Origin: an uncultured archaeon
Lineage (GTDB): Archaea > Thermoplasmatota > Penumbrarchaeia > JASLWR01
Assembly: GCA_964423515.1 (NCBI GenBank)
Contig: CAYRFL010000007.1
Location: forward strand, 1,448 to 65,447
Length of the DNA: 64,000 nt
Reading direction: 5' to 3'
Made by a program: the position numbers and the translations under genes. A model generated the notes under the pieces. It did not search any database and had not been told where the DNA came from. It saw nothing but the letters and a program-made list of their open reading frames with translations. How positions within the stretch are numbered: position 1 is the first letter of the stretch; the number at the start of each line of letters is the position of its first letter. This document shows positions 9,168-60,180 of the stretch, in pieces.

Positions 9168-9275
9168 TTTCGCTCCAATGTCATCGGTCCCAACGACAAT
9201 ACCGGAATAACGCTCCTCGGCTCGGAGAGAAACGACATCATAAACAACACGTTCATCTCGAACGTCGACTACGGG

Positions 9276-11330: not shown

Positions 11331-11609
11331 AACCCAACCATGAAATTATCTCTGTTCTTGAAAGCCGCTCTCGACATCTCTGATCAAAGCTACAGTGATC
11401 TTTCACAGGCGGCACAGACGATTTTGTTTCACTGACCCCCTCTTGTTCTCTTTATATACCAATAGACCGATCCATTCTTGCTTACAATAGGAGGAGTGAG
11501 AAAATGAACGTAAGCGGAGAACAAAACGAGATTGAACCAAGGTACGGTATTAATAAAAAAATGAACCGGGAAAAACATTTCAACCATTTCCAGCAGGGGG
11601 GCGGTCCGC

Positions 11610-15161: not shown

Positions 15162-15176
15162 TGGATCAGCTCCTTC

Positions 15177-15860: not shown

Positions 15861-15959
15861 CACCGCGATCATAACGGTGAGTGTATGCACTTTTTAGTAA
15901 AATATGTTTCTCCCGTACATGTAGGGTAGTTTAAATACTGTCGCCGCTTTATACCTCTC

Positions 15960-16966: not shown

Positions 16967-17536
16967 ATGATAAGAAAGATGCTTTATGCATTTATGGTAT
17001 CGTTCGTATTCACGATTGTCATACTCAATGTTCCCGTTATGGAGGCATATCCCGCTGGGCAAGCTGATTGGTACGCTATTAAAGGCGGAGTTATCGAATA
17101 TACCGTTATAGAAAAGGAAAAAGAAGGTCGGTCAATTAGTTATAAGATCGAGTTGGAAGTATTGGATGTAGAATGTACAAACAACCACAATATTACAAAA
17201 TCGATAAAAATAGGAGAACGAATAACTGCAAATGGAGCTTATATGTACGAGTATTGGAACGATACAATATTATTATATGCCTCTTTGCCCGTTGATAATC
17301 ACAATCCCGATGATCTGCAAAGAGGGAGTGTAATTAACGGGACAATAGCTGTTTTTCCAGAAAATATTCATATCTGGGTTGATGACATCGATTACTCGGC
17401 AGAATATGACTATTCTAAACCTCAAGATTATGGCATATTATATTTTGTAACAAGAATTTTAATCCTATTTGTTGTAACAGCGATGGTTATTGGTTTGTTC
17501 AAGTTCCAACAGAGAAAAAAGTCTAACGATCCATGA
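16967..17536 (+). CDS. hypothetical membrane protein in an AT-rich islet
   Basis: Has an N-terminal and a C-terminal hydrophobic helix. The DNA is markedly AT-rich compared with its neighbours. Confidence 0.55.
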   Translation: MIRKMLYAFMVSFVFTIVILNVPVMEAYPAGQADWYAIKGGVIEYTVIEKEKEGRSISYKIELEVLDVECTNNHNITKSIKIGERITANGAYMYEYWNDTILLYASLPVDNHNPDDLQRGSVINGTIAVFPENIHIWVDDIDYSAEYDYSKPQDYGILYFVTRILILFVVTAMVIGLFKFQQRKKSNDP

Positions 17537-19970: not shown

Positions 19971-20672
19971 TTACGCCAAATCTTTTTCCCCCGCTTCGAG
20001 ATCGATTTTCTCCAATCTGTACATTCCAATGTAAACGCTGACGTATGATAAAGATTGAAAAAGAGAATATGCGGTTATCGTTGTTAATACGATTATCACG
20101 GATGCCTGCACGTTTTTTATCAAGAAGTCATTATCGATAATGAACAGGACCCCATTCACGATATAGAAAAGAATAAACAGGGTACTCACGAAAAACGATA
20201 GAAATGCGGTTATCTTTATCGATCTCCTGTTCGGTAGAGAATATTTTAGTTTCGACAAATGGCTGACGTACAACATGTTTCCGATTCCAAGGACCATGGA
20301 AATGATTATCATAGGCAATAGGGTCCAAATCCATTTTTTGCCGTTGAGTACCTCGTCCAATATTATCAATAATATCGGCAATAGGATGGCGCATCCAATT
20401 GTTATTTTCGTTGCCATCAGTACCTTCGTTGCATGTTCATCGTCGAAATCATGCCTTCTTGAACAAAGGTACAACATACCAACGATATAGCATATCAACG
20501 AAAGGATTGTCAGGAAAAATGCCAGAACCAATAACTCCGCTCCCTCATCGCTTATGCCCCCAAACAACAGATATAATACTATTAGAACCCCCTCCAGCGT
20601 AAAAAAGTAAAACGCAAGGGCATTCAAAAGGTAGCCACTTCTACTTGGATATCGATTAGCCATTTGCACCAT
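19971..20672 (-). CDS. multipass membrane protein in an AT-rich islet (hypothetical)
   Basis: 233 aa with about 6-7 hydrophobic helices and AT-rich codon usage unlike the neighbouring genes. Confidence 0.6.
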   Translation of the reverse strand: MVQMANRYPSRSGYLLNALAFYFFTLEGVLIVLYLLFGGISDEGAELLVLAFFLTILSLICYIVGMLYLCSRRHDFDDEHATKVLMATKITIGCAILLPILLIILDEVLNGKKWIWTLLPMIIISMVLGIGNMLYVSHLSKLKYSLPNRRSIKITAFLSFFVSTLFILFYIVNGVLFIIDNDFLIKNVQASVIIVLTTITAYSLFQSLSYVSVYIGMYRLEKIDLEAGEKDLA

Positions 20673-36934: not shown

Positions 36935-38011
36935 TTGCCCTCCATGACGGCAGACAATGAATACACGGGAATGCTGGATGAATCCATACTGAGCTTGTTC
37001 AGGAGAACACTGAGGTTCGCCGGCAGCCCCGCTCTACTCCGCTTCCTGATAACCACTGCGGCAAACCAGAAGAAGGCCTCGAAGAGAAGGGCAAAATGGG
37101 GCAAGAATGGGTTACGCGTGCCCCCCTTCATGATAGCGAGCATCACCCGGAAATGCAATCTCCACTGCAAGGGGTGCTATTCACGGATACTGAACAGCAC
37201 TGAAAAGGAAGAGATGACCACGGACGATTTCAGGAGATTGTTCGAAGAGGCCGGGGAGCTGGGGATATCCATCATACTTCTGGCCGGAGGTGAGCCCTTC
37301 ATTCGCCCCGACGTCATAGAGATGGCCGGGAAGTTTACCGATATCATCTTCCCCGTGTTCACCAATGGTTTACTTTTAGATGACCGGATGCTTGACAGTA
37401 TCAAGGGAAAGAGGAATATCATACCGGTGCTCAGCCTGGAAGGTGGGCGAAAAGAAACGGACGGCCGCAGGGGTTTGGGCGTTCACGGGGCGATTTCGGA
37501 AGTCATGGCCAGGCTGGAGGACAGGAAAAAAATATACGGCGTATCCATCACGGTCACCACATCCAACCTCGCGGACGTAACCGATCCGGGATTCATCGGG
37601 GAACTGGCGGACGGGAAGTGCAGGTTGTTCTTCTTCGTCGAGTATATACCGGTAAAGGAAGGGACCGAGCACCTGGAGATAGGCGCATCCGACCGAAAAA
37701 TGCTTCTCTCGGCCCTGGAGGCACTGGAGGATCGCCATCCTTCCCTTTTCATCGCGTTTCCGGGTGACGAGGAGAGATTCGGCGGCTGCCTTTCGTCGGG
37801 GCGGGGATTCGTTCACGTCAGCCCGTCGGGGGATCTGGAGCCGTGCCCCTTCGCTCCCTATTCGGACCGCAACATCAGGGAAATGGCCCTCAAGGATGCC
37901 CTGCGCTCTGCGCTCCTCGGCACGATACGCTGCAGTCGCGAGAGATTGAACGAGGTGGAAGGAGGATGTGCGCTCTGGAAAGAGCGTGCATGGGTTCGTT
38001 CGCTGCTCTAG
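36935..38011 (+). CDS. radical SAM protein with C-terminal Cys-containing (twitch/SPASM-like) region
   Basis: CNLHCKGC (CX3CX2C), LLAGGEPF, and C-terminal GGCLSSGRGFVHVSPSGDLEPCPFAP. Paralogous in layout to 56898..58376. Stop codon is TAG. Confidence 0.85.
   Translation: MPSMTADNEYTGMLDESILSLFRRTLRFAGSPALLRFLITTAANQKKASKRRAKWGKNGLRVPPFMIASITRKCNLHCKGCYSRILNSTEKEEMTTDDFRRLFEEAGELGISIILLAGGEPFIRPDVIEMAGKFTDIIFPVFTNGLLLDDRMLDSIKGKRNIIPVLSLEGGRKETDGRRGLGVHGAISEVMARLEDRKKIYGVSITVTTSNLADVTDPGFIGELADGKCRLFFFVEYIPVKEGTEHLEIGASDRKMLLSALEALEDRHPSLFIAFPGDEERFGGCLSSGRGFVHVSPSGDLEPCPFAPYSDRNIREMALKDALRSALLGTIRCSRERLNEVEGGCALWKERAWVRSLL
37961..38005 (+). repeat. direct repeat, left copy (last codons of the radical SAM gene)
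   Basis: 37970..38005 is identical over 36 nt to 43690..43725 (GCGCTCTGGAAAGAGCGTGCATGGGTTCGTTCGCTG). GGAGGATG lies just upstream in both copies. Confidence 0.9.
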
Positions 38012-38152
38012 CCCGGGTCGGGAATTGGACAAGTTCTATCTTTATTTAGATAGGTTCGGAGCTCGAGGATTCGATCAGTCGCGGGATTTGCTGGCATTAT
38101 TCAAGACAGTATCTCTCGAGACGCGGAACGATAAAGGTTAGATGATGCAATA

Positions 38153-40711
38153 CTACAACCTTGGATCGACCGCTTCGCTCTCCATGGCCAATACGGCAAA
38201 TACGCATTCATGGATTTGTTTTAAGGGTCGTTTTTCAATGAAGCGTTCGAGAGCTTCAATTCCAAGAACGAACTCATTGATGGCCAGCTTCCGCTTCTTT
38301 CTCAAGAAGCGTTTCTTCAAACGTTTTAAATTATTTGTATCCGTATAATCCGGGCCATATATTATTCGAAGGTATTCCCGCCCCCGACATTTGATGGCAG
38401 GCTGAATTAGATTCCCCTTGTTTCGAGTCTTATATTCTATAGGTTTAATAACCATACCTTCCCCCCCTGCCTCTGTCAATTCTGTCCACCATTTGACTGT
38501 ATCTCCAATACTGTCTTCGTCGTCGAGGTCTGTGATGTGATACGGAGTTTCTTTGAATAAGGAGGGATCCGATTTTACTATCTTGCCAATGTGTTCCATA
38601 TGCCAGATGTGGTTTTTATCGGTGTGGACTTTACCCTCTGTTGCCATGATATGGAACGGAGCCAACTTGATACCGTTCAATCCCTTGACTGAAGTGCAAT
38701 AATGATGATAGGTGGAAATATATTTCTTGATATTATTATGCTTCTTTTGAAAGGTTCTTTCAATTTTATCGATATCAAGTCCCCTCTCACTGCCCTTGTG
38801 AAGGAGGGGCATTATCTCCGACAAAGAATAATCTCCAGTGGTCCCAGTGGCCGCGTATTGGTCAATTATCAGATTATTTGCCTTCAATGACCAGGGCATG
38901 AGTTCGCAATCCAAACAAACCCAGTCGGTTTCGAACTTTTCCCAGAAACCCAGAGAGGTTAACACTGCCCCAATCCTTTGGAGAAACTCGTTTTCCAGCT
39001 CTTTTTCATCGAAGAAACGTCTGCCGGTACGGGTATAGCATATTCCAATTTCGTCGCCAAGAATCCCGAATCGGGTTCGGGATACCTCGGCATCTTTGCA
39101 TACGATGACTATTGTCCTTGAACCCATGTGTTTCTCTTCGCAAATGACCTTCCGGATTCCCTTCTTTTTGTAGTACTTTAGAGCCTCATCAGGGTGTTCC
39201 AAATATTCATCAAGATCGGTGGTATCCGGGGGTGACATCGTCGGTGGAAGGTATATCAGCCACTTTGGATTAACAGCATAGCGAGTCATTACCTCAAGTG
39301 CGGCAATGGAGTTCTCTTCCTGAACGATTACCTTTTTTTTGTACCTAGTATGAACGATAATCTTTCCGGACACGTCCGAGAGATCCAACACATCATCATG
39401 CTCCTGCTGTAAAGACAACAGGGGTTTTACTTCCACCAGCGGTTTAATTGGCATATAGTATACCCGCTTTGCCGAAACAGATACAACATCATTCTCAGGG
39501 TATCTCAATGCAGTTAATTTTCCACCAAAAACACAACCTGTATCGATATTGATGGTATTGTTCAACCATTCCGGTTCAGGGACTGGTGTGTGGCCGTATA
39601 CAACAATTGCCTTACCTTTGTATTCCGAAGCCCAGCTGTACCTAACCGGCAGCCCATAATCGTCGATTTCCCCGGTGGTTTCACCGAACAGGCAAAATGA
39701 CCTCACGGCTGCCGAGCCGCGTCCTTGCATATCCTCCCTCAGTCCAGCATGTGCTACGACAAGGTTCCCACCGTCAAAAACGCTATGGCTTACCAGATTT
39801 CCAATGAACACCAGGATTGCATCCTTGACAGATGCATCTATACCTTTTAGTTCTTCAAGTGTCTCCGCCAGGCCATAATCCGTTTTCACCCTATGTCCTT
39901 TCAAAGTCCTTTGCAGTTTTATGTCATGATTTCCCGGAACACAAAAGGCGATTCCACTGTTTACCATCCACATGACCAACCTTAGGACAGTCAGTGAAGA
40001 GGGACCTCTGTCAACCAGGTCTCCAAGGAATATGACCCTACGACCGCCTGGATGACTTATTCCTTTTAAATCTCCATGGTGTGTGAACTCAAGGATATAC
40101 CCTAACTTGTCCAGTAATTCGATCAATTCGGTATGGCATCCGTGGATGTCACCTATGATATCGAATGGAGGCCTTTCATGCTTTTTATTGTTGAAAAGGG
40201 GTTCAAGGATGATCTTGACGTTTTCAATATCATCGGGTTCCAGAATGAAGCGATGTCGAAAACCCTCCCTCTTTATCTGTTTCAGAGATCTCTTGAAATC
40301 ATGAAATTGATTTGAAATAAAGTGTGAGCCAAAATCTCTATCGTCGCGGTCTTTATGCCGTTGTTTCAACGTTGATTCGGGAACGTTGAATCCGATGATA
40401 ACAGGAAAAAAATGATAATCTTTGGCCAATATGACCAATGTCTTTCTTGATGAGGGTTTAACGTTTGTAGCATCGATTACAGTTAATTTACCTCGTTTCA
40501 ATCTCTTTGCCGCAAGAAAATGGAGCAGATCAAACGCATCAGCAGTCGCTTCCATCGAATTTTCATCGTCCGACACCAAGGCCCGGCATCTATCGGATGA
40601 TATTATCTCGGTTTCCTTGAAATGGGTGTGTGCAAAATGGGTTTTTCCCGAACTGCTCGGGCCCATCAATAGGATGAATGAAAGTTCCGGTATCCTGATA
40701 TCCATGTTCAA
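38153..40711 (-). CDS. pnkp: polynucleotide kinase-phosphatase Pnkp (kinase + metallophosphatase + ligase-like adenylyltransferase)
   Basis: P-loop GPSSSGKTHF. Calcineurin-type motifs GDIHGC, GDLVDRGP and GNHD. Ligase motif-I-like EEKHMGSR. 852 aa, with a 4-nt overlap with hen1. Confidence 0.85.
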   Translation of the reverse strand: MNMDIRIPELSFILLMGPSSSGKTHFAHTHFKETEIISSDRCRALVSDDENSMEATADAFDLLHFLAAKRLKRGKLTVIDATNVKPSSRKTLVILAKDYHFFPVIIGFNVPESTLKQRHKDRDDRDFGSHFISNQFHDFKRSLKQIKREGFRHRFILEPDDIENVKIILEPLFNNKKHERPPFDIIGDIHGCHTELIELLDKLGYILEFTHHGDLKGISHPGGRRVIFLGDLVDRGPSSLTVLRLVMWMVNSGIAFCVPGNHDIKLQRTLKGHRVKTDYGLAETLEELKGIDASVKDAILVFIGNLVSHSVFDGGNLVVAHAGLREDMQGRGSAAVRSFCLFGETTGEIDDYGLPVRYSWASEYKGKAIVVYGHTPVPEPEWLNNTINIDTGCVFGGKLTALRYPENDVVSVSAKRVYYMPIKPLVEVKPLLSLQQEHDDVLDLSDVSGKIIVHTRYKKKVIVQEENSIAALEVMTRYAVNPKWLIYLPPTMSPPDTTDLDEYLEHPDEALKYYKKKGIRKVICEEKHMGSRTIVIVCKDAEVSRTRFGILGDEIGICYTRTGRRFFDEKELENEFLQRIGAVLTSLGFWEKFETDWVCLDCELMPWSLKANNLIIDQYAATGTTGDYSLSEIMPLLHKGSERGLDIDKIERTFQKKHNNIKKYISTYHHYCTSVKGLNGIKLAPFHIMATEGKVHTDKNHIWHMEHIGKIVKSDPSLFKETPYHITDLDDEDSIGDTVKWWTELTEAGGEGMVIKPIEYKTRNKGNLIQPAIKCRGREYLRIIYGPDYTDTNNLKRLKKRFLRKKRKLAINEFVLGIEALERFIEKRPLKQIHECVFAVLAMESEAVDPRL

Positions 40712-42189
40712 TCATCCTCCCGGGATTTGTGTTTGAACACCGCCATCTGGGTGGGAGATCCGAATTCGGAATGAACATCGCCTATTGATTGGAGCGTTAC
40801 AGAGTAATCATAATCGGAACCGACCCGTTCCACCCATGAAGTGAATTGATCTCTTGACCATTCGAAACGATGGTCAGGATGACGGTACTCCGAAGGATTT
40901 TCTAATCCATAGACCGGATTGTACTCTCTATTGGGCGTTGTCAAGATCACATTGACAGGTCTGGCGAATTTGAAAACCACCTTCTCAAGATCGATGAGCC
41001 GATCCGGGTCAATGTGCTCGATCACCTCAAGAATCACAGCGATATCGGATCCCTTTAACCGTTCATCGCGATAGAGGAGTGACCCATGAATAAAATCTAT
41101 TCTCGCCTTCATCTTTGGCGACATCTCGTCCATGTACAGTCGGGCCTTTGCGCGTTGTAAGGATCGATACGATACATCCATACCAATTATTTTAGGAAAT
41201 CTGCTATATTTCAACCTTAGTTCAATAAGTCTGCCATCGCCACAACCCAGGTCAAGAACTTTTTTCCCACCCAATTGCCTTAGCGTTTCCATTACTGCTC
41301 GGTATCTCTGCTGATTCAGGTTCTCGGTGATGTTCGATTTTACTGGATTTGAGCTCACTTCATCATTATGATTTTGATTCTCATCCGCCAGTAATCGATC
41401 TAAGGCCATCTGCGTAAGGGTTCTGATATGTTTTAGAAAATACTTGGTAATGACCTCGACCTCCGGATGAGCGGGGAGCCAATCGGAACCTTTCTCCAAT
41501 AAAACGTCCACATTCTGCTTGGATATCCAGTAATGTCTTTGTCTGTCGAAGACAGGTATCAATATATGAAGCTGAGAGAGGAGATCTTTTAGGAGAATTT
41601 TGTTTGTCAATGCTATCGAGTAATAGTCGCTATCCCCCCATTCAGGATTTATCGGGTCGACAGGCAACCGATGTATATCCAGGTCGTATCCAAGCGGTTC
41701 GAACATTCGTCTGATGAATTCCTCTCCGCCTTTAACATTGATTGGAGATAATTTACATCGAAGGGGCATTTCGATATCTGTAAGTTCCGGCCTCGCTTTA
41801 CAATTACCATTCATTGCAGTTCCATATACTTTCGAAATGGCACTGCTCATGAAGGACGAAGCCACATATGGCCTGTCATTGACATAATGTTTCAGCAAGG
41901 AGTAATCGACCGGGATTCTCAGAACCCTGACAAGATCGATATTGTTGATGTCGATCAGTAGCGTCGCCGTGCATCTTTCTTCTGTGGCTTCGGGGTAAAA
42001 GACCACTGCTTTTCCCCCAGAGATATTGAATGACTGCACCTTGTCAGGATGCTTGTGCAGTAGATAACCCAAATCGGTTGCCGGTGAATGTGTTGTCGTG
42101 ATAGTTAACTCCAATCTACCTAACTCCAATTCCATAAAACCAATTACTGTAAAAGACAATAGGGCGAGCGATTTTAAATATTGTGTCAA
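40708..42189 (-). CDS. hen1: 3'-terminal RNA ribose 2'-O-methyltransferase Hen1 (bacterial type, with N-terminal ligase-activating domain)
   Basis: SAM motif VLDLGCGDGRL and metal/active-site motifs ILEVIEHID and HPDHRFEWSRDQF. 493 aa. Lies immediately upstream of pnkp and is coupled to it. Confidence 0.85.
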   Translation of the reverse strand: MTQYLKSLALLSFTVIGFMELELGRLELTITTTHSPATDLGYLLHKHPDKVQSFNISGGKAVVFYPEATEERCTATLLIDINNIDLVRVLRIPVDYSLLKHYVNDRPYVASSFMSSAISKVYGTAMNGNCKARPELTDIEMPLRCKLSPINVKGGEEFIRRMFEPLGYDLDIHRLPVDPINPEWGDSDYYSIALTNKILLKDLLSQLHILIPVFDRQRHYWISKQNVDVLLEKGSDWLPAHPEVEVITKYFLKHIRTLTQMALDRLLADENQNHNDEVSSNPVKSNITENLNQQRYRAVMETLRQLGGKKVLDLGCGDGRLIELRLKYSRFPKIIGMDVSYRSLQRAKARLYMDEMSPKMKARIDFIHGSLLYRDERLKGSDIAVILEVIEHIDPDRLIDLEKVVFKFARPVNVILTTPNREYNPVYGLENPSEYRHPDHRFEWSRDQFTSWVERVGSDYDYSVTLQSIGDVHSEFGSPTQMAVFKHKSREDD

Positions 42190-42308
42190 TAAGCTCGAGA
42201 ATCGTGAACAACATGTTACCCTAACGTTTTGGTTTAACAGTACAACAAATATGCAAATTTATACAAGATGTGGAAATCGGATTAAACACCACATTTAAAT
42301 CAGAGATT

Positions 42309-43541
42309 TCACAACAAGACCGCTGGCAGGGAGAGTACTGGCGTTTCCTTCACCATTTTCCTTTCGAAAACATCGTAATTCACGAACAATCCAAAGGGAG
42401 GATCATAGGTACTGACGAAGGATCTGAAAGCTTGTGTCAGCCTTGGCGTCGCCTTTATCTCGATGGGAATTCCATCGAGTATTAGATCCACCTCCGCTTT
42501 CGCTTTAGTCCTCCAGTAATTGATCTTTCCACCTCTCAAGAGAAGCTGGGTGAAAACGTGGTTCTCGAGGAGAAAACCCTTTTCCCTGTGGAATCTGAAA
42601 TCACCTACAAGAGCGTTCCTTAAACCGTTGTCCAGAAAACATACCTTTGGCATCTTCCTTATCTCGGTTGACAGGTTCTTGTAGAATGGTCTGATACGAC
42701 GAATTATGAAGCTGTTTTCCAGTATATTTATTATCTCTGCAACCTTCATTTTATCGATCTTCAGATGATTGGATATTCTATTCTCATTTAGCATCTTTCC
42801 GCTATGAAATGCTAAGTACTGCAGTATCCTTAAAGCGCTGTCGCGGAAGGCCTGGCCGTACATCTTCAATATGTCTTTTTCTATGTACAGCGTGATCAGC
42901 TGCCTTAAAAGCAACTCTTTCTTGCTCAAGTCCTCCAAAAGCACTATCCTAGGGAAACCTCCATACGTCATGTATTCTTCTAGCATCTCGTTAAGATCAC
43001 CTATGACCATGGTATTCTTCAGTTCGTAATCCGGCGAGAAATCGAACTTGACCCTCTCACGCTGACTTGAGAGACCGGGATTCCTTGCTCTAAGGAACTC
43101 CGAGAACGAGAAGGGTTGGAGTTCGAAATATACCACTCTACCGACGAGGGATGCGCCAAGCCCCCTTACGTCAAGGGAACTGCTCCCCGTGATGATGAAT
43201 TTGACCCTTTCGCCGTACCTATCGAACAATACCTTCAGGCGGCTACCTGCCTTCTCTATGTACTGAACCTCGTCAAGTAGAAAGAGATATCTTTCGCCAT
43301 CGATAAGAAATCTGTCGATATATCTTTTCGGATTCCGCTGGAATTCAAGCCTTTCCATTTCATCATCGAAGTCCCTATATATCAGGTGGTTAGGAGAATA
43401 TTTCCCGTCTCGCATCAAAACATCTGCAAGATGCTTAATAAGGGTCGTCTTTCCACACTGTCGGGGCCCGATAACGGCGATAATCTCTCTCTCGTCGAGC
43501 CAGTGTTTGATTGTATTTTCGAGCTTCCGGCTTACGTACAT
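42309..43541 (-). CDS. AAA-family ATPase with DUF4143-type C-terminal domain
   Basis: Walker A IGPRQCGKTTL and Walker B LFLLDEVQY. The C-terminal region GKINYWRTKAKAEVDLI is typical of the AAA_14/DUF4143 family. Confidence 0.85.
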   Translation of the reverse strand: MYVSRKLENTIKHWLDEREIIAVIGPRQCGKTTLIKHLADVLMRDGKYSPNHLIYRDFDDEMERLEFQRNPKRYIDRFLIDGERYLFLLDEVQYIEKAGSRLKVLFDRYGERVKFIITGSSSLDVRGLGASLVGRVVYFELQPFSFSEFLRARNPGLSSQRERVKFDFSPDYELKNTMVIGDLNEMLEEYMTYGGFPRIVLLEDLSKKELLLRQLITLYIEKDILKMYGQAFRDSALRILQYLAFHSGKMLNENRISNHLKIDKMKVAEIINILENSFIIRRIRPFYKNLSTEIRKMPKVCFLDNGLRNALVGDFRFHREKGFLLENHVFTQLLLRGGKINYWRTKAKAEVDLILDGIPIEIKATPRLTQAFRSFVSTYDPPFGLFVNYDVFERKMVKETPVLSLPAVLL

Positions 43542-43641
43542 TATTTCATTTAATGCTACGAAAGTATATCTCTCTTTCGTTTAAATCCTACTCTTTTACA
43601 AATTTTACATAAAAAAGTAGTTGTCTTTCGGTCCATGTTAA

Positions 43642-43734
43642 TCTCCGGGAAACATAGGGGAAGGGCTTCGCGGGCTGGAGGATGGCTGCGCGCTCTGGAA
43701 AGAGCGTGCATGGGTTCGTTCGCTGGTTCACTGA
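43642..43734 (+). pseudogene. orphan 3' fragment of a radical SAM gene (right direct repeat)
   Basis: Translates ..GEGLRGLEDGCALWKERAWVRSLVH*, compared with the intact gene end ..RERLNEVEGGCALWKERAWVRSLL*. A stop codon lies at 43639, so there is no upstream coding body. Confidence 0.5.
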
Positions 43735-43792
43735 GAGGATGATGGTGTCTTTCGGGTCTTTCCGTATATACGCATCCCGTGTGTAATTGTAC

Positions 43793-46261
43793 TCAGCTCG
43801 TCCTTTCCCTTATGACGTCGGCGATGTTGATCCTGGCAATGTATCTTATAGTGAACAGTGACACGAGGAGTACGACGAAAGCGATCATAATAAAGCCGAA
43901 AAGGAAGCCAAGCCAGGAGAAGACGATGGTCAGTTCCCAATCGAAATCTGTAACCGCCTGCATCATGTACGCTGCCAGTCCGTATCCCCCTGCCGTTCCC
44001 ACCAGAACACCGAAAATGGTGATGAAACCCCCTTCGATGAATATCAGATGGCCAAGCCTTCGGAGGGGTGTACCCAGGGTCTTCATGGTGGCGTAGTTCC
44101 TTCTGTTCTCCTGGGCGTTGATCCTGAAGAGATTGTATATGATGGCTCCGGCCAATATCATGCTTATGAGCCCCATTATGACCATCATGCCGATAATGAG
44201 GTTGTAGTACTGTGCCAGGACATTTTCCCTGTCGGAGATGTGGCTCACCGCCCGGACACCGGGGACGGTTATCAGATCGTTCTCCATGTCGGTGTCGTCC
44301 CCCCCGCCCTCAGTACTCAGATATACCACGTTCACAAGCCCTTCCAGCTTTGTCGTGTCCTGGATGAATGCAAGGTCCGTGTACACGTAGGGGCCAAGTA
44401 TGTTATCCTGCACTCCCGAAACGGTCACGGTGACCTCCGTCATGTTCAGACCGGCAGGTCCCATCACGGGCATCTCCAGCACCAGTTCATCATCGACCCC
44501 GGCTCCCAATTCTTCCGCCAGCGTTTCCGATATAACGAGCTTCCCCGGCTGGACGGAACCCGATTTCATCTTCAGGTCATAGGCTTCTGTTATATCCTCC
44601 AGACCATATACCAGGGCCTCTTCCGAACCTGAACCGTCGATTATCTTTGTGGGGAGCATTATTCCCGAGTTCGTGTCCGTTATCACGGTGAAGTTCTGAT
44701 GCCATTCATCGGCCCCGATCTGGGATTGAAATCCCTCCAGGGTCACCTCGTAATCCCACTTTAGGTCCTCGGTCGATTGATCCAGGATCGCCACGATGGA
44801 TTCCAGCACGATGGCAAAGCTGAGAAACAGGGAGAGCGCCAGGGCCACCCCGAACACAGTGGAAAATGTTCTTCGGGGTGTTCGCAAGAGGTTCCTGAGG
44901 GTGAGCTTGAGGGGTACGGGTAGCTTTCCCATCTTTCCTATTCTGGTGGCAACACGGCCCACCTTCTTCTTGCTTATACCTTCACGGGATTGGATTGCGT
45001 CTATGGGTTTGATCCGAAGTGCTCTCCAAGCGGGGAATATGGTGAAGACCAGGCAGAGGGCCATGCATATAAGGCTGGCCGAGAGGAAATGATACCATGA
45101 GAAGGCGCCCTTCGTCACGGTGAAATCGTAGAGGTCGTCCAGAAGGTCCATGAACGCACCGTTGATAGGTACGGATAGAAGCATTCCAAGCCCCGTTCCC
45201 AGAATGCCTATAAAGAGACCGATGAAACCGAAGTACCTTATAACAACGCCGTTGGGCAGGCCCAGCGCCTTGAATATTCCGATCTGTGTACGGTGGGTCT
45301 GGATCATTCTTCTCAGGGCGATGACCAATCCAAATGCCGCCACCCCGAAGATGATCATGGGAAATATTGCCGTGTTCTCCCTGTCGTTCTTCAGGTCCTG
45401 GTACATGAAGAACCTGGAGGGATTATCCTCCCTGGGGGTGAGCTTGACAGGTATGCCTGCGTTCTCGAATACCGTCTCCAGCCTTCCCTGGAACTCATCC
45501 AGCTCCTCATAGTCCTTCAGGGTGAGTACGATGTCGTTGACCGTCGTGTTGTTGGGTACATATCCCAGGTAAAGCTCCTGAGCGGTATCCATAGGCAGCA
45601 TGACCACGCCGAATGAGTATTCCGATGGGAACATTGCCCCTTCGGGGATCACGAAGAAGTACTCGGGGACGCTGGCATCCTCGAGCACATCCAGCTCGAA
45701 GTTCTGGGTTCCCTTTATCACGTTTACCCTGTCCTGGCCAGGATCTATGTCATAGGCCCTGGAGAACTTCCGCTCGATGAAGCATTCGCGGGCATTCGGT
45801 GCCGAGAACGTTTCAGGCTCTTCGGAAAAGAACAGCGGTACGTTCACGACAAGGTCTCTTGAAGCCCCCGTATCATTGAATGTCATATACCCGATGACCT
45901 GGCCCTTTGTGATCTTCATCTCACCACCGTCGTGGTGGTTAAGAAACACATCGTAGCTCAACCGGTATTCGATCATATCCACATCCCGGGCCAGGCCGGA
46001 ATCCTCCATGAGGGCACGGATGTCCGTAAGGTTCCGGGTTATCCCGTACTGGAACTGCACCTGAAGGTCCATGAACCGGCTGTCGTCGTATATCTCCTCC
46101 AGTATGAGCTCACGGGCATCGATCATGTTGTACATGGGTCCGTAGGAGGCCACCCCCAATCCCAGTATCAGGATCAGGAAGAGGTATTGGACCTTGTGCT
46201 TCCACACTTCCCGGATACCTTTCTTAATGAACGTTTTTTTCATAGTATCCCTCCCTACCAT
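43793..46261 (-). CDS. ABC transporter permease, MacB/FtsX-type (duplicated)
   Basis: 822 aa with the same architecture as 12846..15161. Overlaps the ATPase gene by 7 nt. Confidence 0.9.
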   Translation of the reverse strand: MVGRDTMKKTFIKKGIREVWKHKVQYLFLILILGLGVASYGPMYNMIDARELILEEIYDDSRFMDLQVQFQYGITRNLTDIRALMEDSGLARDVDMIEYRLSYDVFLNHHDGGEMKITKGQVIGYMTFNDTGASRDLVVNVPLFFSEEPETFSAPNARECFIERKFSRAYDIDPGQDRVNVIKGTQNFELDVLEDASVPEYFFVIPEGAMFPSEYSFGVVMLPMDTAQELYLGYVPNNTTVNDIVLTLKDYEELDEFQGRLETVFENAGIPVKLTPREDNPSRFFMYQDLKNDRENTAIFPMIIFGVAAFGLVIALRRMIQTHRTQIGIFKALGLPNGVVIRYFGFIGLFIGILGTGLGMLLSVPINGAFMDLLDDLYDFTVTKGAFSWYHFLSASLICMALCLVFTIFPAWRALRIKPIDAIQSREGISKKKVGRVATRIGKMGKLPVPLKLTLRNLLRTPRRTFSTVFGVALALSLFLSFAIVLESIVAILDQSTEDLKWDYEVTLEGFQSQIGADEWHQNFTVITDTNSGIMLPTKIIDGSGSEEALVYGLEDITEAYDLKMKSGSVQPGKLVISETLAEELGAGVDDELVLEMPVMGPAGLNMTEVTVTVSGVQDNILGPYVYTDLAFIQDTTKLEGLVNVVYLSTEGGGDDTDMENDLITVPGVRAVSHISDRENVLAQYYNLIIGMMVIMGLISMILAGAIIYNLFRINAQENRRNYATMKTLGTPLRRLGHLIFIEGGFITIFGVLVGTAGGYGLAAYMMQAVTDFDWELTIVFSWLGFLFGFIMIAFVVLLVSLFTIRYIARINIADVIRERTS

Positions 46262-46974
46262 TCCAGGTCCTTGACGCTCATGGGTTTCACGTTCCGCTCC
46301 TCTCTGAGGATCTCCCCGTCCCTTAGATAGAGCACCTTGTGGGCGATCTTGGCCAGCTCCTTGTTATGGGTGACGATGAGCACCGCCCTGCCCTTGTCGG
46401 CAAAGGACACGAGAAGCTCCAGTATCATCTTTCCCGTGGTGTAGTCCAGTTCGCCCGTGGGCTCGTCTGCCAGAAGTATGTTCGGATCCTTGGACAGGGC
46501 CCGGGATATGGCCACCCTCTGCTGCTCGCCGCCCGATAGCTGGAAGGGATAGTGGTTCTCCCTGCCATCCAGTCCCACCATCTCAAGGAGCTTTCTGGCC
46601 TTGCCCCTGGCCTCCCTGCCGCTCATGTCCATGACGTATTCCAGTACGAACTCTATGTTCTCCACCGCCGTGAGGTTCGGTATGAGGTTGAAGAACTGGA
46701 ATATAAAGCCGATTTTCTTCTGCCGGTATCTGGTCAGCTGTCTCTGGCTCAGCCCGGCGATCTCGTTTCCTTCAACCCTGATGGAACCCCCCGTGGGGCT
46801 GTCTATTCCGCCGATCTGGTTAAGAAGGGTCGTCTTTCCGCATCCGCTCGGGCCGAGGATCACCGTTACCTGATCCGGCTCTATCGTTAGGCTTACATCC
46901 CTGAGTGCTCGGACGATCACCTCGCCCATCTTGTACTCCTTGGACATGTCCTCTATCTCGATGATGTGTCTCAT
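46255..46974 (-). CDS. ABC transporter ATP-binding protein
   Basis: [31 protein letters not shown] and [11 protein letters not shown]. Confidence 0.9.
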
Positions 46975-47804: not shown

Positions 47805-48605
47805 TTGTGCTTATTATTAAAAAGATATAAAATTCCTGACCACTATACCCTATTCCATGGCCTTCCTTTCCGAAGGCCGGGTGAAACATTGAAAGAAAAG
47901 ATCATATCCATACAGGACCCAATAGAAACAGAATACAGTCCGAGACAGTGGGATATACTGTCGACAATGCGTGGAAAGGCCCGGGAGATCTGCGACATTT
48001 TTTCTCTCCCTTCATCCGTTTACGGCTCCCTGGCCAGGGGTGATGTTCATTCTAAAAGCGATATTGATATAATTGTTTACTCGGTGGAACCCACCTATAT
48101 TATCGATACTGCGTTGGAAATGGCGGGGCTTATCCCTGAAAGCAGGGTGCTGATACAGGCCTGTCCGAATACTGTTCCCAAGGCCGTCTGGAACCTGGAG
48201 GACGAGGTGAGCATTACCGTTCCCCTCCTGGATCTCAACAGGCGGGAACTGGAGTTCTTCTCTTTCGGGGGGAATCTGAGCTTCGAACGGGATAATCCGG
48301 ACTCATTTGTAAGGAGAGTACCGGGTGTGGATAAAAAGCTCCTGTTGATAACACCGACTGAGAATGGGCATAAGGCTGAAAGCATCATTGGCCAGGAGAA
48401 AAAGGTTTCCACGATCCTGTGTATCTCCCCTGACGTGGTGGGTGAGAGGATCAGGGTGCTTAGCCGCCGGGACCGCATCGGAAGGACCGGTGTTTTCATC
48501 ACCAGGCCCCTGAATCCGGATGAGAGTTTTGAACAGGTGCTCAGGGAGCTAACCGACAGGAACTCTACGGTGAGACGTCAGGTAGCATATCGGAACATAA
48601 GGTGA
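47805..48605 (+). CDS. Pol-beta-superfamily nucleotidyltransferase domain protein
   Basis: YGSLARGDVHSKSDIDIIVY is the GS..D.D NTase motif. The start is uncertain (TTG in the track). Confidence 0.7.
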   Translation: MCLLLKRYKIPDHYTLFHGLPFRRPGETLKEKIISIQDPIETEYSPRQWDILSTMRGKAREICDIFSLPSSVYGSLARGDVHSKSDIDIIVYSVEPTYIIDTALEMAGLIPESRVLIQACPNTVPKAVWNLEDEVSITVPLLDLNRRELEFFSFGGNLSFERDNPDSFVRRVPGVDKKLLLITPTENGHKAESIIGQEKKVSTILCISPDVVGERIRVLSRRDRIGRTGVFITRPLNPDESFEQVLRELTDRNSTVRRQVAYRNIR

Positions 48606-48609
48606 TGAT

Positions 48610-49245
48610 ATGAGGGGAGAAAAAGCAACCCGAGTTCAGAGTCAATTCGATCTCCATGTCCATTCCACCGGCTCCTTCGACTCAAAGCTCAGACCCAGGC
48701 AGATATTAACAAAAGCCAGGAACCTCGGCCTCAGTGGAATATCCATCACCGACCATGACAGATTGACAGAGGTACAAAATCCCTATCCCGATCTGTTGCT
48801 CATTCCGGGTATGGAGATCCGAATCTACGATCAGGGACTATGTCCTTCCTGGGGCGCCGATCTGCTTGCACTAGGGATCGAGCATGAAGTGGAAACAGGC
48901 CGGGGTCTGTTCTCCACCATCGAAGCCATCCATGATGCCGGGGGAGTGGTTGTGGTCCCCCACCCATTTTCCTCGAAAGATGAATTTCCCGCTCTAAACG
49001 AGGGGGTGTACGATATTGCTCATCTTGTGGAAGGGATCGAGGTATTGAACCAGAAAAAACACCTGGACAATGTCAGGGCAAGAAAGTTATCTGAAACCTT
49101 TAACTTGGCCAAAATTGGTGGTTCAGATGCACACGAGTTGGAGTATCTGGGCAGGGTGGTGACTGTTTCAGAGGCCATCCACTCAAGCGAAGAACTGCTG
49201 GTGGCGATCCGCCACAGGAGATGTAGGGCGCTGAAGGTCTTTTAG
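48610..49245 (+). CDS. PHP-family metal-dependent phosphoesterase
   Basis: FDLHVHSTGSFDS, ISITDHD, VVPHPF and GGSDAHE. Confidence 0.8.
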   Translation: MRGEKATRVQSQFDLHVHSTGSFDSKLRPRQILTKARNLGLSGISITDHDRLTEVQNPYPDLLLIPGMEIRIYDQGLCPSWGADLLALGIEHEVETGRGLFSTIEAIHDAGGVVVVPHPFSSKDEFPALNEGVYDIAHLVEGIEVLNQKKHLDNVRARKLSETFNLAKIGGSDAHELEYLGRVVTVSEAIHSSEELLVAIRHRRCRALKVF

Positions 49246-50841: not shown

Positions 50842-52956
50842 TCAGGCCACACCGGGCGGACGTGCGATCAGGTCAGGTGCTTTGTTTTCCCTGGGATCCT
50901 CGCTCTCCCCCTCGCCCACCTTATCTCCGACAACCGAATCCCGGCTCATCGCTGCCATTGCATCGCGCAAAGGTTCATTGCTGCGGGTGACCTTATTTCC
51001 CATGACCCTCAGGAGCCCCCTGGCACCGCATACTCTGCACTTTATCGTAGTGGGTCTTCTGGACGTATATATATCGATTGTGGCGCCGCACCTGCAGGGA
51101 GCCCGATACAGTACCTTTTCCTTCTTTCCGCGTTTGCTTCCTCGGCTTTTTACATCCTTATCTTCCATTTCCCCTCGGCGGTAACGGATAGTATGATGAT
51201 AATATCTGGGTGAACCCCGATGTTCCCGCGATGATATGAGCCCCGCCATTTTCAAGTTCGCCAGGTGTGTCTTGGTCACGGTTCTCTTCAATCCCAGGGC
51301 TTTCCTCAGTTCGCGGACGTTTGCCCCGGGATGTTCTTTGATGTAATTCTCAATCCCCTTCCTTTCATTACCGGTCAAGGCAACGAAGATCACGAATAAG
51401 ACACACAGGAGGATCAGGAGCACTACCCCTATAAGAACTGGTAAGAGAGTTGTGGGATCGGAGGTCTCCTCGTCGTCTTCCCCCGACCTCTCCGGATCGC
51501 GTGGATATGCATCTTCTTTGTTCGAATATCCGTCGCCGTCCAGATCGAGTGGTGTCGAAACAGGATTCATCGGGTCGCTCCCAGCCTCCTTCTCTGCGGC
51601 GTTCGTCCACCCGTCGTCGTCGGAATCGGCCAGCTCGTCCGGCAGGGGTGGCTTGGTGAAATCCATTGGCGGAAGCTCGACGGGAGGTTCCGCCATAGGC
51701 AACAGGTCGAAGGCACCGCCCTCGCCGTCCATGGTATACGGGGAGTCGACGATGCCGTTCCCATCGTCGTCCGGTCCAGTCCAGTCGGACCAGTGATTCC
51801 CGCCGCTTTCATCGTTCCAGTCGTTGTCGCCGTCGTCGGTGGCCTGTCCGTTCTCCCCGGCGTTCTGTAGAAACGAATTGGAGTGGAATGAATTTCCGGA
51901 TGTGCTTGAGGCCGCCCTGACGCCGTGAACGTTGCCCCCGAAGACGCATTCGGATACGGTATTTTCCTCAGAGTACTTTAGGAGCATTCCGTACCTCCCG
52001 TTGTCCGCCGACAGGATGTTCTTCAGTACGCTGCGATAGCAATGGTACAGGTGAAGCCCGTTATCGCCGTTCCTGGCTGCCGTACAGTTCAGGACCGCAC
52101 TGTCCGTGCTCATGACGTATATCCCGTCCATGTCGTTTCCGGAACAGTTGCATTCCCTCATCGTCACGGAGTTGGAATCGAATATGTATATGCCGCTCTT
52201 GCCGTTGTCATTGCACGTATAATTATCCAAAAGCAGGTCATTGGACAGCCAGTACGCATAGAATCCGTGATTCAGGTTCAGGTTGCACGTACCGTCCGCG
52301 AATACGTTGTCGTAGGAGTAGAACAGGTGTATGCCCGTACCACCGTTCTCGTCGCAGCGGCAGCCCCGTATCTCGTTACGGACCGCTCCGCCCATGATCA
52401 TCCCGACCCAGCCGTTCCGGGAGAGGTTACACGACCGGATGAGGTTGCCGCTGGAGTTGGTGATGGATAGCCCCATAAGATTGCCGGTACAGCGGCATTC
52501 GGCTACCGTGTTGTTGCCGGATCGTATGAGAATACCATTCCTGGCGTTCCGCGCGGTGATCCCGCGTATGGTTATGTTGTCGGCTGCCAGTTCGAGGGCA
52601 TATTCTCCGCCCATACCGTCGATTATCGCCTCCTGTCCTTCCTCTTCCGGACCGTTCACTGTCTGACCGTTCTTCGCTGGTCCGTTATCCTCCGGGCCCA
52701 GTATGGTCAGGGGCCGGTCGATCACGACGTTCTCGAGGTAAGTCCCGGGTCTGATGCGTATGGTATCGCCGTCCGTGGAGCCTTCGATGGCCGAGCTGAT
52801 GTTGAGATAGTCCCCGCTTCCGGATATGTCGACTATCAGTTCGCGCATAACCCTTTTCGATCCCGCTCCCGGCCGTGTTTCACCCTCCGTGGATGAAGGA
52901 AGGATGACGAGCATAATTACGAGGGCGGCCAACGGTAATATGGTCCGGGCATCCAT
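50842..52956 (-). CDS. surface beta-helix (PbH1) protein + TM + cytoplasmic winged helix + zinc ribbon
   Basis: Start MDARTILPLAALVIMLVILPSSTEG. PbH1 repeats, GGNHWSDWTGPDDDGNGIVDSPY and DSDDDGW..DLDGDGYSN. TM helix LLPVLIGVVLLILLCVLFVIFVAL. Then IKEHPGANVRELRKALGLKRTVTKTHLANLKMAGLI and CRCG..x15..CRVCG. Confidence 0.85.
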   Translation of the reverse strand: MDARTILPLAALVIMLVILPSSTEGETRPGAGSKRVMRELIVDISGSGDYLNISSAIEGSTDGDTIRIRPGTYLENVVIDRPLTILGPEDNGPAKNGQTVNGPEEEGQEAIIDGMGGEYALELAADNITIRGITARNARNGILIRSGNNTVAECRCTGNLMGLSITNSSGNLIRSCNLSRNGWVGMIMGGAVRNEIRGCRCDENGGTGIHLFYSYDNVFADGTCNLNLNHGFYAYWLSNDLLLDNYTCNDNGKSGIYIFDSNSVTMRECNCSGNDMDGIYVMSTDSAVLNCTAARNGDNGLHLYHCYRSVLKNILSADNGRYGMLLKYSEENTVSECVFGGNVHGVRAASSTSGNSFHSNSFLQNAGENGQATDDGDNDWNDESGGNHWSDWTGPDDDGNGIVDSPYTMDGEGGAFDLLPMAEPPVELPPMDFTKPPLPDELADSDDDGWTNAAEKEAGSDPMNPVSTPLDLDGDGYSNKEDAYPRDPERSGEDDEETSDPTTLLPVLIGVVLLILLCVLFVIFVALTGNERKGIENYIKEHPGANVRELRKALGLKRTVTKTHLANLKMAGLISSREHRGSPRYYHHTIRYRRGEMEDKDVKSRGSKRGKKEKVLYRAPCRCGATIDIYTSRRPTTIKCRVCGARGLLRVMGNKVTRSNEPLRDAMAAMSRDSVVGDKVGEGESEDPRENKAPDLIARPPGVA

Positions 52957-53035
52957 TATAAGAAAGATACGCAAGGATTCTATATATTGTCGACGGTGAT
53001 TAGTTCGATAAAAGTCGAAGCCTTTCGAGTAACGG

Positions 53036-53265
53036 TTTGCCGATGCCCGTTGACACTCCGCAAACCCCTTCGGGCTTTGCTGCACCCTCGGCATGTATAC
53101 CTACGGGTTCACGCCTCGGCACCCGCAGGGTAACGCCCCGAGGGTGCAGGGGCATATTATGCCCCGGAGTGAAACGGGCAAATACAGGCGTATCTTGATA
53201 CGCCAGGACCCGAAAGGACCAGATGCATCTCTGATGCATAGGATTTTCAGCTTGACAATGTGTGC
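53036..53265. other. densely hairpin-forming non-coding region (possible structured RNA or long 5' leader)
   Basis: An 11-bp inverted repeat 53081..53091 / 53138..53148 encloses a 9-bp stem-loop. Hairpins lie at 53060..53080 (C-UUCG-G loop), 53149..53165, 53187..53204 and 53223..53239. A closing helix pairs 53036..53051 with 53173..53182. Confidence 0.3.
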
Positions 53266-58978: not shown

Positions 58979-59026
58979 GCCGGCGCACCGTCATTTTTGG
59001 AAAGATGCTCCTTTCGGGTGTGGATG

Positions 59027-60180
59027 ATGATATATTTCGATAATGCGGCGACTGGTTGGCCCAAGCCCAATTGCGTAATGGAGGCCATGAACGATTTTCT
59101 CGTCAACGTGGGCGCCAATCCGGGCCGCTCGGGCCATCGCCTTTCCGTGGAGGCAGGCAGGATCGTCTATCGTGCCCGGGAGAACGTCGCCAGGCTGTTC
59201 AACCTTGAGGATCCCCTGCGGGTGGTATTCTGTTCCAACGCCACCGCCGCCCTGAACCTGGGGATCAGGGGCATACTGGGAAAGGGCGATCACGTCATCA
59301 CCGGCAGCATGGAGCACAACTCGGTGATGCGCCCCCTTCAGGATGTCGGCCGCGAGGGAGTGAAGACAACGGTGGTCCAATGCGACGCCGAGGGTTTCCT
59401 CGACGCGGAGAAGATAAACGAGGCCATAAGACCAGATACGAGATTGATCGTGCTGAACCACGGTTCCAATATCGTTGGAAGCCTTGCCCCCGTAAGAAAG
59501 GTGGGAATCATCGCCCGTGACGCGAACGTACTGTTCATGATCGACAGCGCCCAGACGGCGGGATGCGTTCCCGTCGATATGGAAAGGGACAATATCGACA
59601 TGGTCGCCTTCACCGGTCACAAGGCTCTCATGGGCCCCCAGGGCACGGGCGGTCTCGTCATCGGCAGCGGCGTGGACGCGGGTCGCATAGAAAGAATGGG
59701 ATCGGGTGGGACTGGCAGCAGGTCCGAATCCGACGTTCACCCGGATTTCCTCCGGACAAGTACGAGAGCGGGACCCTCAACACCGTGGGTCTTGCCGGGC
59801 TTGCCGCAGGGATCGGATACGTTCTGGATCGAGGGGTGGAGCATATTCACGAGAAGAACACGGGTCTCGTAAGGAGGTTCATCCGGGGTGCTGCGGGCGT
59901 GGAAGGATTGAAACTGCATGGATGTTCGGAAGGTCGGGATAGGACCGCCACGGTCTCGTTCACCATGGATGATCTGTCACCGTCCGAACTGGGGCTGATA
60001 CTTGACGATGAATATGACATAATGAGTCGTGTGGGGCTTCACTGCGCTCCCAATGCGCACAGGACCATAGGTACGTTCCCGCAGGGGACCGTGAGGTTCG
60101 GCATGGGCTATTTCAACCGTCCGGAGGAAGTGGATGCTGCCATAGAGGCCCTGGGCGGTCTCGCGGTGGAAGGGCGATGA
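59027..60180 (+). pseudogene. class-V aminotransferase: cysteine desulfurase / selenocysteine-lyase-like, interrupted by an apparent -1 frameshift near 59752
   Basis: MIYFDNAATGWPKP, PLP-lysine FTGHKALMGPQG and active-site GLHCAPNAH. Frame 1 ends ..SESDVHPDFL and frame -1 continues PDKYESGTLNTVG. Joined, they give the expected DFLPDKYESGTLN. Confidence 0.75.

Follow-up and report, generated by a model that had tools for sequence, protein, structure and literature searches.

How did an RNA repair system come to sit against the 3' end of a radical SAM gene in the chromosome of what is probably an archaeon? The two-protein Pnkp/Hen1 RNA repair system has been characterized as bacterial. In the stretch of DNA analyzed here (64 kb, referred to below as the window), a hen1-pnkp gene pair and a gene for an ATPase with a nuclease domain lie between two copies of a 36-nt direct repeat, the first of which belongs to the end of the radical SAM gene. 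An earlier note on this DNA took the whole region for a single island brought in by site-specific integration. Having compared the locus with its counterparts in three sister lineages, we lean towards another answer, namely that positions 38006-43725 form a composite islet in a variable slot, made up of a hen1-pnkp operon of bacterial type and a PDC-S01 gene of archaeal type, with a repeat that reflects crossover or gene conversion and with cargo that has turned over between lineages.

The identity of the repair genes can be stated with some precision. On the minus strand, pnkp (38153..40705) encodes a polynucleotide kinase, 2',3'-phosphatase and RNA ligase of 850 amino acids (aa), and hen1 (40708..42135) encodes a protein of 475 aa with a ligase-activating N-domain and a 3'-terminal RNA 2'-O-methyltransferase. 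Pnkp matches the NCBIfam equivalog TIGR04075 from end to end with 1307 bits (cut-off 750), and Hen1 matches TIGR04074 with 616 bits (cut-off 340). The Pfam domains in Pnkp are AAA_33 (residues 13-144), Metallophos (182-389) and PNKP_ligase (470-846, 2e-170), and those in Hen1 are Hen1_L (3e-100) and methyltransferase domains. Matches in the PDB are to domain structures of the Clostridium thermocellum Pnkp type, 4drf (ligase with Hen1-N), 3ty8, 4j6o (phosphatase) and 4gp6 (kinase), and for Hen1 to 4dqz (N-terminal domain) and 3jwg (methyltransferase). The motifs of Pnkp are intact, including the P-loop GPSSSGKT, the phosphoesterase motifs GDIHGC, GDLVDRGP and GNHD, and the ligase motif EEKHMGS (KxxG nucleophile), which aligns to the ligase-domain chain 4drf_A; Hen1 carries the SAM-binding motif LDLGCGDG and EVIEH. 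Equivalog scores, domains and motifs thus agree with the earlier description of a bacterial-type Pnkp/Hen1 cassette, and both proteins are full-length. The gene pair and its adjacency were also correctly recognized, with 2 nt between the hen1 stop and the pnkp ATG and GGAGGA just upstream, but the gene coordinates given at that time, which followed longer open reading frames (ORFs) beginning with TTG, are replaced by those above.

The closest named relatives of these proteins are bacterial. In a search with Hen1, members of its own clade were 85-86% identical and the next matches at most 54%. Every named relative among the 120 matches listed was bacterial, with about 50% identity, in line with the affinity that had been suspected. 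Most of them belonged to the Bacteroidota (Flammeovirgaceae, Rapidithrix, Fulvivirgaceae, Porifericola, Catalinimonas, Zhouia, Salegentibacter and Chitinophagales), and some to the Planctomycetota. By its relatives, then, we assign the hen1-pnkp operon to bacterial ancestry. Hen1/Pnkp was found on 24 of 72,556 bacterial plasmids searched, and phage records contained no full-length match. Two relatives of Pnkp were present in viral contigs, both of them distant and one adjoining a Hen1. The latter is on a 100-kb contig of a viral collection (L043; IMG/VR uncultivated virus genome [UViG] 2225789004_000003), where Pnkp (41%) and Hen1 (38%) are adjacent at 8001-11924; in the second contig (L042), Pnkp (52%) is situated at the contig end.

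By homology, Pnkp would phosphorylate 5'-OH ends, remove 2',3'-cyclic or 3' phosphates and seal the break, and Hen1 would activate the ligase and methylate the 2'-O of the 3'-terminal ribose, making the repaired junction resistant to renewed cleavage. The ratio of nonsynonymous to synonymous divergence (dN/dS) of Pnkp/Hen1 between lineages is 0.14-0.21, indicating purifying selection, and this together with the intact motifs makes it likely that the proteins are in use in their probable archaeal host. The region upstream of hen1 (42136..42308, minus strand) contains a conserved TTTAAAA (42173-42179, minus strand) 38-44 nt before the hen1 ATG, which may be an archaeal TATA-like box; a scan for sigma-70 promoters and terminators gave results at chance level. 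No ribotoxin candidates were detected among the window ORFs scanned, and a role in counter-defense for the RNA repair genes of the islet, as had been proposed, is speculative.

The third cargo gene (42309..43541, minus strand) encodes an AAA+ ATPase with a winged helix and a PD-(D/E)XK nuclease domain (AAA_14 plus DUF4143), as indicated by Pfam, PADLOC, conserved motifs and an AlphaFold model. It matches the PADLOC candidate PDC-S01 (PDLC04789, 1.6e-70) over residues 1-381, and Walker A, Walker B and the residues E350/D352...E361-x-K363 are invariant in 35 homologues. The AlphaFold model (predicted local distance difference test [pLDDT] score, 92) has structural matches only to generic AAA+ proteins, these being replication factor C (RFC) clamp loaders, Orc1/Cdc6 and signal transduction ATPases with numerous domains (STAND proteins). 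DUF4143 has been catalogued as a PD-(D/E)XK nuclease (PMC3424549), and PDC-S01 is described as an ATPase fused to such a nuclease, enriched in archaea and retained in Thermoplasmatota (PMC12988326). In the same 2026 survey, it ranked as the fourth most common prokaryotic defense candidate, with no experimental validation reported (PMC12988326). The nearest named relative of the ATPase is from a Thermoplasmata archaeon (57%), followed by DPANN and Euryarchaeota bins, and none was found in viral contigs. From these matches we identify the gene as the candidate defense gene PDC-S01, of archaeal affinity. As an archaeal-type gene and a known defense candidate, it does not belong to a bacterial package, and the bacterial relatives of Hen1 together with the archaeal relatives of the ATPase make the cargo one of mixed ancestry.

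The sequence that encloses this cargo, GCGCTCTGGAAAGAGCGTGCATGGGTTCGTTCGCTG, is 36 nt long and occurs exactly twice in the window, at 37970..38005 and 43690..43725 (both plus strand), as the earlier note had it; 100 dinucleotide-preserving shuffles gave no match. The left copy codes for ALWKERAWVRSL, followed by L and the stop codon, closing the radical SAM ORF (..RSLL, stop at 38011). The right copy translates to ..GLEDGCALWKERAWVRSLVH and a stop codon, with an in-frame stop 18 codons upstream of DGC. Translation therefore agrees with the description of the left copy as the end of an intact gene and of the right copy as an orphan fragment; the radical SAM ORF is intact because its 3' end is duplicated. 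The orphan fragment as a whole (43645..43737, plus strand) consists of a degenerate arm and the perfect core, as seen in translation and alignment. Imperfect ungapped similarity continues for 19 nt on the 5' side of the 36-mer, from 37951 in the left copy, and yields 55 nt at 87%. The order at the left junction is ..GGAGGATGT-core-CTCTAGCCC, and at the right junction ..GGATGGCTGC-core-GTTCACTGA. In its 5' half, the core contains an 11-bp hairpin, AUGUGCGCUCU-GGAA-AGAGCGUGCAU (fold, -18.7 kcal/mol; z, -2.7), and the left boundary of the repeat falls within its stem. The C termini of radical SAM homologues vary (..SLL, ..SLIH, ..SLVK and ..SLLVHNK), so that neither ..SLL-stop nor ..SLVH-stop can be called the native end.

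Whether the region is one unit or several is answered by the sister lineages. With the lineage of the window designated A, homologue searches and contig look-up in similar samples recovered three more, B, C and D. In lineage B, whose radical SAM protein is 79% identical, the order is radical SAM, Pnkp-Hen1, H+-pyrophosphatase (H+-PPase), without the ATPase, and lineage D has the same arrangement; in neither B nor D did a search of the interval from hen1 to the PPase gene reveal a radical SAM fragment. In lineage C (radical SAM, 80% aa identity), the order is radical SAM, ATPase, H+-PPase, without Pnkp-Hen1. There, a 109-nt direct repeat (84%), with copies spaced 1446 nt apart, brackets the ATPase gene alone; it comprises the last 80 nt of the radical SAM gene, the stop codon and 27 nt of spacer. 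This arrangement of lineage C is present in about ten assemblies. Since Pnkp-Hen1 and the ATPase occur separately in the sisters, the islet consists of two modules, and the repeat goes with the ATPase module. The view of the region as one discrete island is not supported in that form.

The limits of the modules can be drawn from collinearity. By blastn, window positions 36960-42247 are continuous with lineage B (L014/L016) at 84.9%, whereas the PadR and sensor genes upstream reach only 68.7%. The spacer that separates the stop codons of the radical SAM gene and pnkp (38012..38152, no strand assigned) falls within this blastn match, and a three-way alignment shows it to be homologous in A, B and D, so it belongs to the Pnkp-Hen1 module. 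In the same three-way alignment, identity between A and B/D shows no visible step where the repeat core lies. On its right side, the module ends near 42247, where A, B1 and B2 part. At this point, after CCAGTACAACAT and about 110 nt upstream of the hen1 gene, A continues into the ATPase gene, B1 into the PPase gene and B2 into unidentified sequence, and one lineage B contig stops exactly after CCAGTACAACAT. These alternative continuations mark a module edge that is prone to recombination. The lineage B continuations are located at L016 7939-8055 (contig of L021), at the contig end of L014 and at L020 9714-10000; the B2 stretch is 117 nt long and reaches a contig end. The second module, window positions 42308-43621, comprises the ATPase gene and its upstream (promoter) region (43542..43644, minus strand) and matches lineage C (L019 3775-5089) at 85.9%; the upstream region is collinear with C up to 43621, where collinearity ends about 50 nt short of the orphan fragment. 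Beyond the right end of the islet, there is no synteny between A and B, C or D. A possible homology between the sequence 3' of the ATPase gene in A and the radical SAM-PPase spacer of C was dropped (P = 0.12 to 0.24 versus shuffles).

The two halves of the orphan fragment in lineage A differ in their resemblance to the host gene. The core is identical at 36/36 positions, whereas the 45-nt upstream arm of the right copy is 44% identical (20/45) to the gene of A itself and 60% identical (27/45) to the radical SAM gene of lineage C. Core identities are 36/36 for A-A, 32/36 for C-C and 24-26/36 for A-C, the right copies resembling the gene of their own host. Such a bimodal repeat, perfect over one stretch of an old and degenerate fragment, is explained by crossover or gene conversion at least as readily as by a recent duplication of an attachment (att) site, and it is also compatible with a recent att-type event.

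When did the cargo arrive? We estimated synonymous differences (pS) by the Nei-Gojobori method with bootstrap intervals. For A versus B and C, host genes gave 0.52-0.75 (0.59-0.67 for A-B), compared with 0.31-0.34 for Pnkp/Hen1 (A-B) and 0.37 for the ATPase (A-C). For B versus D, the values were 0.39 for the host (PPase) and 0.18-0.21 for Pnkp/Hen1. The remaining pairs, B versus C (host, 0.36-0.43) and C versus D (host, 0.20), share no cargo gene. Cargo pS is therefore about half of host pS in every comparable pair, with non-overlapping bootstrap intervals, and the synonymous divergence of the radical SAM gene is host-like. The order of the hosts inferred from pS is (A,(B,(C,D))). Composition is likewise at odds with that of the host. 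G+C is 0.41-0.48 between the repeats versus 0.52-0.59 in the flanks, and G+C at third codon positions (GC3) is 0.47 for Pnkp and 0.48 for Hen1 (z of about -2) and 0.56 for the ATPase (z, -1.1), measured against 32 other ORFs of the window (mean, 0.68; standard deviation, 0.10). The region is thus more AT-rich than its flanks, as had been noted by eye, and its codon composition is foreign; the window has further low-G+C patches, so the composition of the islet is not unique. Pnkp/Hen1 GC3 remains at 0.46-0.48 in A, B and D, while host GC3 is 0.69-0.76 in A and 0.55-0.66 in B. Relatives sharing one arrangement with native composition were not found: arrangements vary among the lineages, in all of which the composition is non-native. 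Taken together, the pS values suggest that cargo was exchanged between the lineages after their divergence.

The reading towards which we lean would run as follows. The 3' end of the radical SAM gene would have undergone an insertion or duplication without damage to the host ORF, and the repeat would be the footprint of this event. The insertion could have been a single-crossover (Campbell-type) event through a portable copy of the radical SAM gene end, the orphan 3' end being carried on the promoter side of the PDC-S01 module. Such an event would give the topology of host gene, cargo and then a fragment with a foreign-like left arm and a right part that runs into host DNA, and the perfect 36 nt would be the crossover or conversion tract on an older, degenerate fragment. 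Cargo modules would then have been gained, lost or exchanged among the four sister lineages after their split.

Several points weigh against this reading. No recombination mechanism has been observed, and neither attB/attP sequences nor an enzyme are in evidence. The arm is nearer to the lineage C gene than to that of A (27 versus 20 of 45 positions), which as support is weak. The Pnkp-Hen1 module is present in B and D without a flanking repeat. The lower cargo pS could reflect a slower synonymous rate under vertical descent, and the cargo topology, (A,(B,D)), agrees with that of the hosts. The domain of the host, too, is likely rather than shown, since it was deduced from archaea-associated Pfam and NCBIfam families and the relatives of one gene in a window without rRNA, tRNA or ribosomal protein genes.

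Some of these points make up the case for vertical inheritance with differential loss, an alternative that we take seriously while considering it somewhat unlikely. On this account, a common ancestor of the four lineages had the order radical SAM, Pnkp-Hen1, ATPase, fragment. The ATPase and the fragment would have disappeared in B and D, and Pnkp-Hen1 in C, and gene conversion would have homogenized the core of an old duplication. Besides the congruent topology, the roughly constant ratio of cargo to host pS (about 0.5), the equal position of the slot in all lineages and the apparent fixation of the islet in lineage A speak for it. It has to contend with cargo pS that is significantly below that of adjacent host genes in every pair and with a Pnkp/Hen1 GC3 that has not drifted towards the very different host values of A and B. 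It also requires three independent losses, including reciprocal ones in the sisters C and D. Finally, the left repeat copy of C has 27 nt of native spacer abutting the ATPase stop, which a simple deletion of Pnkp-Hen1 does not yield.

The account in the earlier note, which we consider unlikely, is that Pnkp, Hen1 and the ATPase arrived as one island through an integrase acting in trans or since lost, with the 36 nt as the att core. In its favor are the perfect repeat, whose 3' boundaries are sharp, the intact ORF of the target and the foreign composition; the orphan end ..RSLVH-stop is a plausible native end, given homologues ending in ..SLIH, ..SLVK and ..SLLVHNK, and lineage C uses the same target gene. 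The note was right that the island holds no integrase: a scan of the islet ORFs and of about 40 others in the window detected no integrase, transposase or recombinase family, and this itself tells against an integrase-mediated event. So do the modular cargo, with Pnkp-Hen1 at the same place without a repeat in B and D; the difference between the repeats of A (36 nt, perfect) and C (109 nt at 84%); and the resemblance of the core of each right copy to the gene of its own host. Nor is an empty site on record. All retrieved lineage A contigs carry the junctions and none has an empty site; an exact look-up of the predicted empty-site protein (...RSLVH) found it absent from a collection of 15 billion proteins; the radical SAM protein is the only member of its 90% cluster; and a look-up through the FtsX permease returned occupied contigs only. 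In B, C and D, the slot is occupied by some module in each, and the islet appears to be fixed in the sampled lineage A population. Of the proposal of site-specific integration, therefore, the flanking direct repeats, one of them completing the target gene, and the foreign composition stand; the unity of the cargo does not, and neither an empty site nor a recombinase was found. The modularity of the cargo in relatives speaks against it, and a single island inserted at a specific site by an integrase is possible but unproven.

Two more venturesome ideas give PDC-S01 an active part. According to the first, which we rate as very unlikely, the slot is an integrase-free cassette exchange site, at which modules pass from one related archaeal lineage to another on a portable gene 3' end by single crossover at the hairpin core, the host gene being restored each time, and the PD-(D/E)XK nuclease of PDC-S01 might make the initiating cut. 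If this were true, some members of the very abundant PDC-S01 family would be homing genes of a selfish kind instead of, or in addition to, defense genes. According to the second, which is more improbable again, PDC-S01 is its own mobility enzyme, a homing-type selfish gene that cuts near the hairpin, inserts with target duplication and sometimes carries Pnkp-Hen1 along. The ATPase gene, its promoter and the orphan fragment do occur together in A and C in the same order and with similar spacing, the lineage C repeat brackets the ATPase alone, the nuclease motif is invariant and the core starts inside the 11-bp hairpin. A flanking-repeat test (seed search and Smith-Waterman alignment versus shuffles) at other PDC-S01 loci, however, rejected the idea that the gene generally carries flanking target duplications, with negative results at all three other evaluable loci (L034, L035/L036 and L038; homologues 59-76% identical). 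The structural matches are to generic AAA+ clamp-loader, Orc and STAND folds only, and the family is otherwise seen as a defense candidate (PMC12988326). At a fourth locus (L039/L040), the upstream DNA is too short for a firm test.

Other repeats were seen near these homologues. In L040 (and also in L039), a 72-nt direct repeat (89%) at 1562-1633 and 2527-2598 brackets an unannotated gene of 221 aa, which in L040 sits just downstream of a 60%-identical PDC-S01 homologue of another lineage. In L038, two 128-nt copies with 97% identity (4475-4602 and 4636-4763), 161 nt apart, lie in a 730-nt gap upstream of the 59%-identical PDC-S01 homologue, which is convergent with a UvrD/PD-(D/E)XK helicase-nuclease gene.

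The weakest alternative, for which no evidence was found, is that the repeat arose during assembly, when contigs were wrongly collapsed, duplicated or joined. It can be dismissed, because no fewer than three metagenome contigs, assembled independently from different samples with different pipelines (JGI 3300009374 [L002], ENA ERZ23499057 [L004] and JGI 3300009008 [L012]), span both junctions with flanks identical to those of the window, the repeat is just 36 nt long and a homologous but different repeat recurs in the lineage C assemblies. The L004 contig is 99.97% identical to the window across 13.1 kb. The left junction is present in 8 further retrieved contigs, and at least 15 metagenome contigs, more than were retrieved, code for a radical SAM protein identical to that of the window.

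The host gene of the slot (36944..38011, plus strand; ATG start probably at 36944) encodes a radical SAM protein of 355 aa of the MoaA/NifB/PqqE/SkfB type (Pfam Radical_SAM, 6e-14; Fer4_12). A search of genome contigs with this protein gave as its sole match a distant one from the Planctomycetota, and thus no close genome. The window itself contains no rRNA, tRNA or ribosomal protein genes and has no Rfam matches. Archaea-associated families are present in the window and its sister contigs (HTH_10, HTH_HVO_0163_N, HVO_A0114 and AF_1625_C), and the chiefly archaeal family DUF131/TIGR00304 scores above its cut-off there. From these families and the relatives of one gene we conclude that the host is probably an archaeon, possibly related to the Thermoplasmata; of the archaeal context claimed for this locus, the families are thus present and the assignment to a domain is likely. 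The names of the samples point to an anoxic marine water column as the habitat.

Other genes of the window were also recorded. NosD or PKD beta-helix proteins with C-terminal helix-turn-helix (HTH) domains of the HVO_0163 and HVO_A0114 types are encoded at 9276-11330 (plus strand) and 50842-53094 (minus strand), and also at 343-711 of the L012 contig; such a fusion of a surface-type repeat to a DNA-binding domain is unusual. ORFs at 16967-17536 (plus strand; 189 aa; GC3, 0.33; z, -3.4) and 19971-20672 (minus strand; 233 aa; GC3, 0.49; z, -1.8) are without Pfam or PADLOC matches, were described as more deviant than Pnkp/Hen1 and may be other foreign genes. There are two pairs of ABC ATPase and FtsX permease genes (12846-15890 and 43793-46974, both minus strand), and in lineage B a related pair lies upstream, not downstream, of the radical SAM gene, so that the neighborhood has been rearranged between lineages. 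To the right of the TetR-ABC-FtsX genes, a nucleotidyltransferase-domain protein with weak MntA-antitoxin and PDC-S09 matches (47805-48605, plus strand) is followed by a PHP-domain protein (48610-49245, plus strand), with no HEPN partner seen. Next to TusA/DsrE and radical SAM-TusA genes, a class-V aminotransferase (cysteine desulfurase-like) is split between the overlapping ORFs 58997-59872 and 59563-60180 (both plus strand), which match its profile at positions 1-215 and 244-370; the split reflects either a frameshifted pseudogene or a sequencing error.

How does the islet compare with what is known? With the bacterial Pnkp/Hen1 systems of C. thermocellum and Anabaena variabilis it shares the three-domain Pnkp, the two-domain Hen1, the order hen1-then-pnkp, which is also kept in lineages B and D, and the tight coupling, together with the catalytic motifs, scores far above the equivalog cut-offs and strong matches to structures of the C. 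thermocellum type. It differs in that the host is probably archaeal, that identity to named bacterial homologues is only about 50% and that a TATA-like box, and no clear sigma-70 promoter, seems to precede the operon. Clusters of Pnkp1-Rnl-Hen1 have been reported on Borg extrachromosomal elements of Methanoperedens, where RNA repair genes related to bacterial ones are likewise found in an archaeal setting and carried by accessory or mobile DNA (PMC11208441). Those clusters are of the three-protein type with a separate Rnl, whereas here the ligase is fused into Pnkp (two-protein type) and the genes lie in a 5.7-kb chromosomal islet. Like islands that regenerate the 3' end of their target, such as tRNA-gene islands and archaeal integrated elements, the islet has direct repeats, a functional end with an orphan fragment and foreign composition. 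Unlike them, it has a protein-coding radical SAM target, no integrase was found, the cargo is modular between sisters, one module occurs at the site without a repeat and no empty site or circular form is known. The ATPase agrees with PADLOC PDC-S01 (AAA_14 plus DUF4143; COG1373) in its full-length hidden Markov model match, its ATPase and PD-(D/E)XK domains and its conserved motifs; in contrast to the three other evaluable loci, the copies in A and C are flanked by a duplication of the neighboring gene end.

The islet is thus not a new type of system, as Pnkp/Hen1, PDC-S01 and genomic islets are all known, and its mechanism of mobility is unproven. What the locus presents is a two-protein Pnkp/Hen1 system established in a probable archaeal chromosome and kept in three of four sister lineages, and, for uncultured microbes of marine anoxic zones, a compact case from nature in which cargo modules turn over at a single slot of the chromosome. 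The placement of an RNA repair operon beside a candidate nuclease defense gene could guide work on conflicts based on RNA damage in archaea. The main value of the locus lies in the presence of this repair system in a probable archaeon and in a clean natural series of alternative cargo states.

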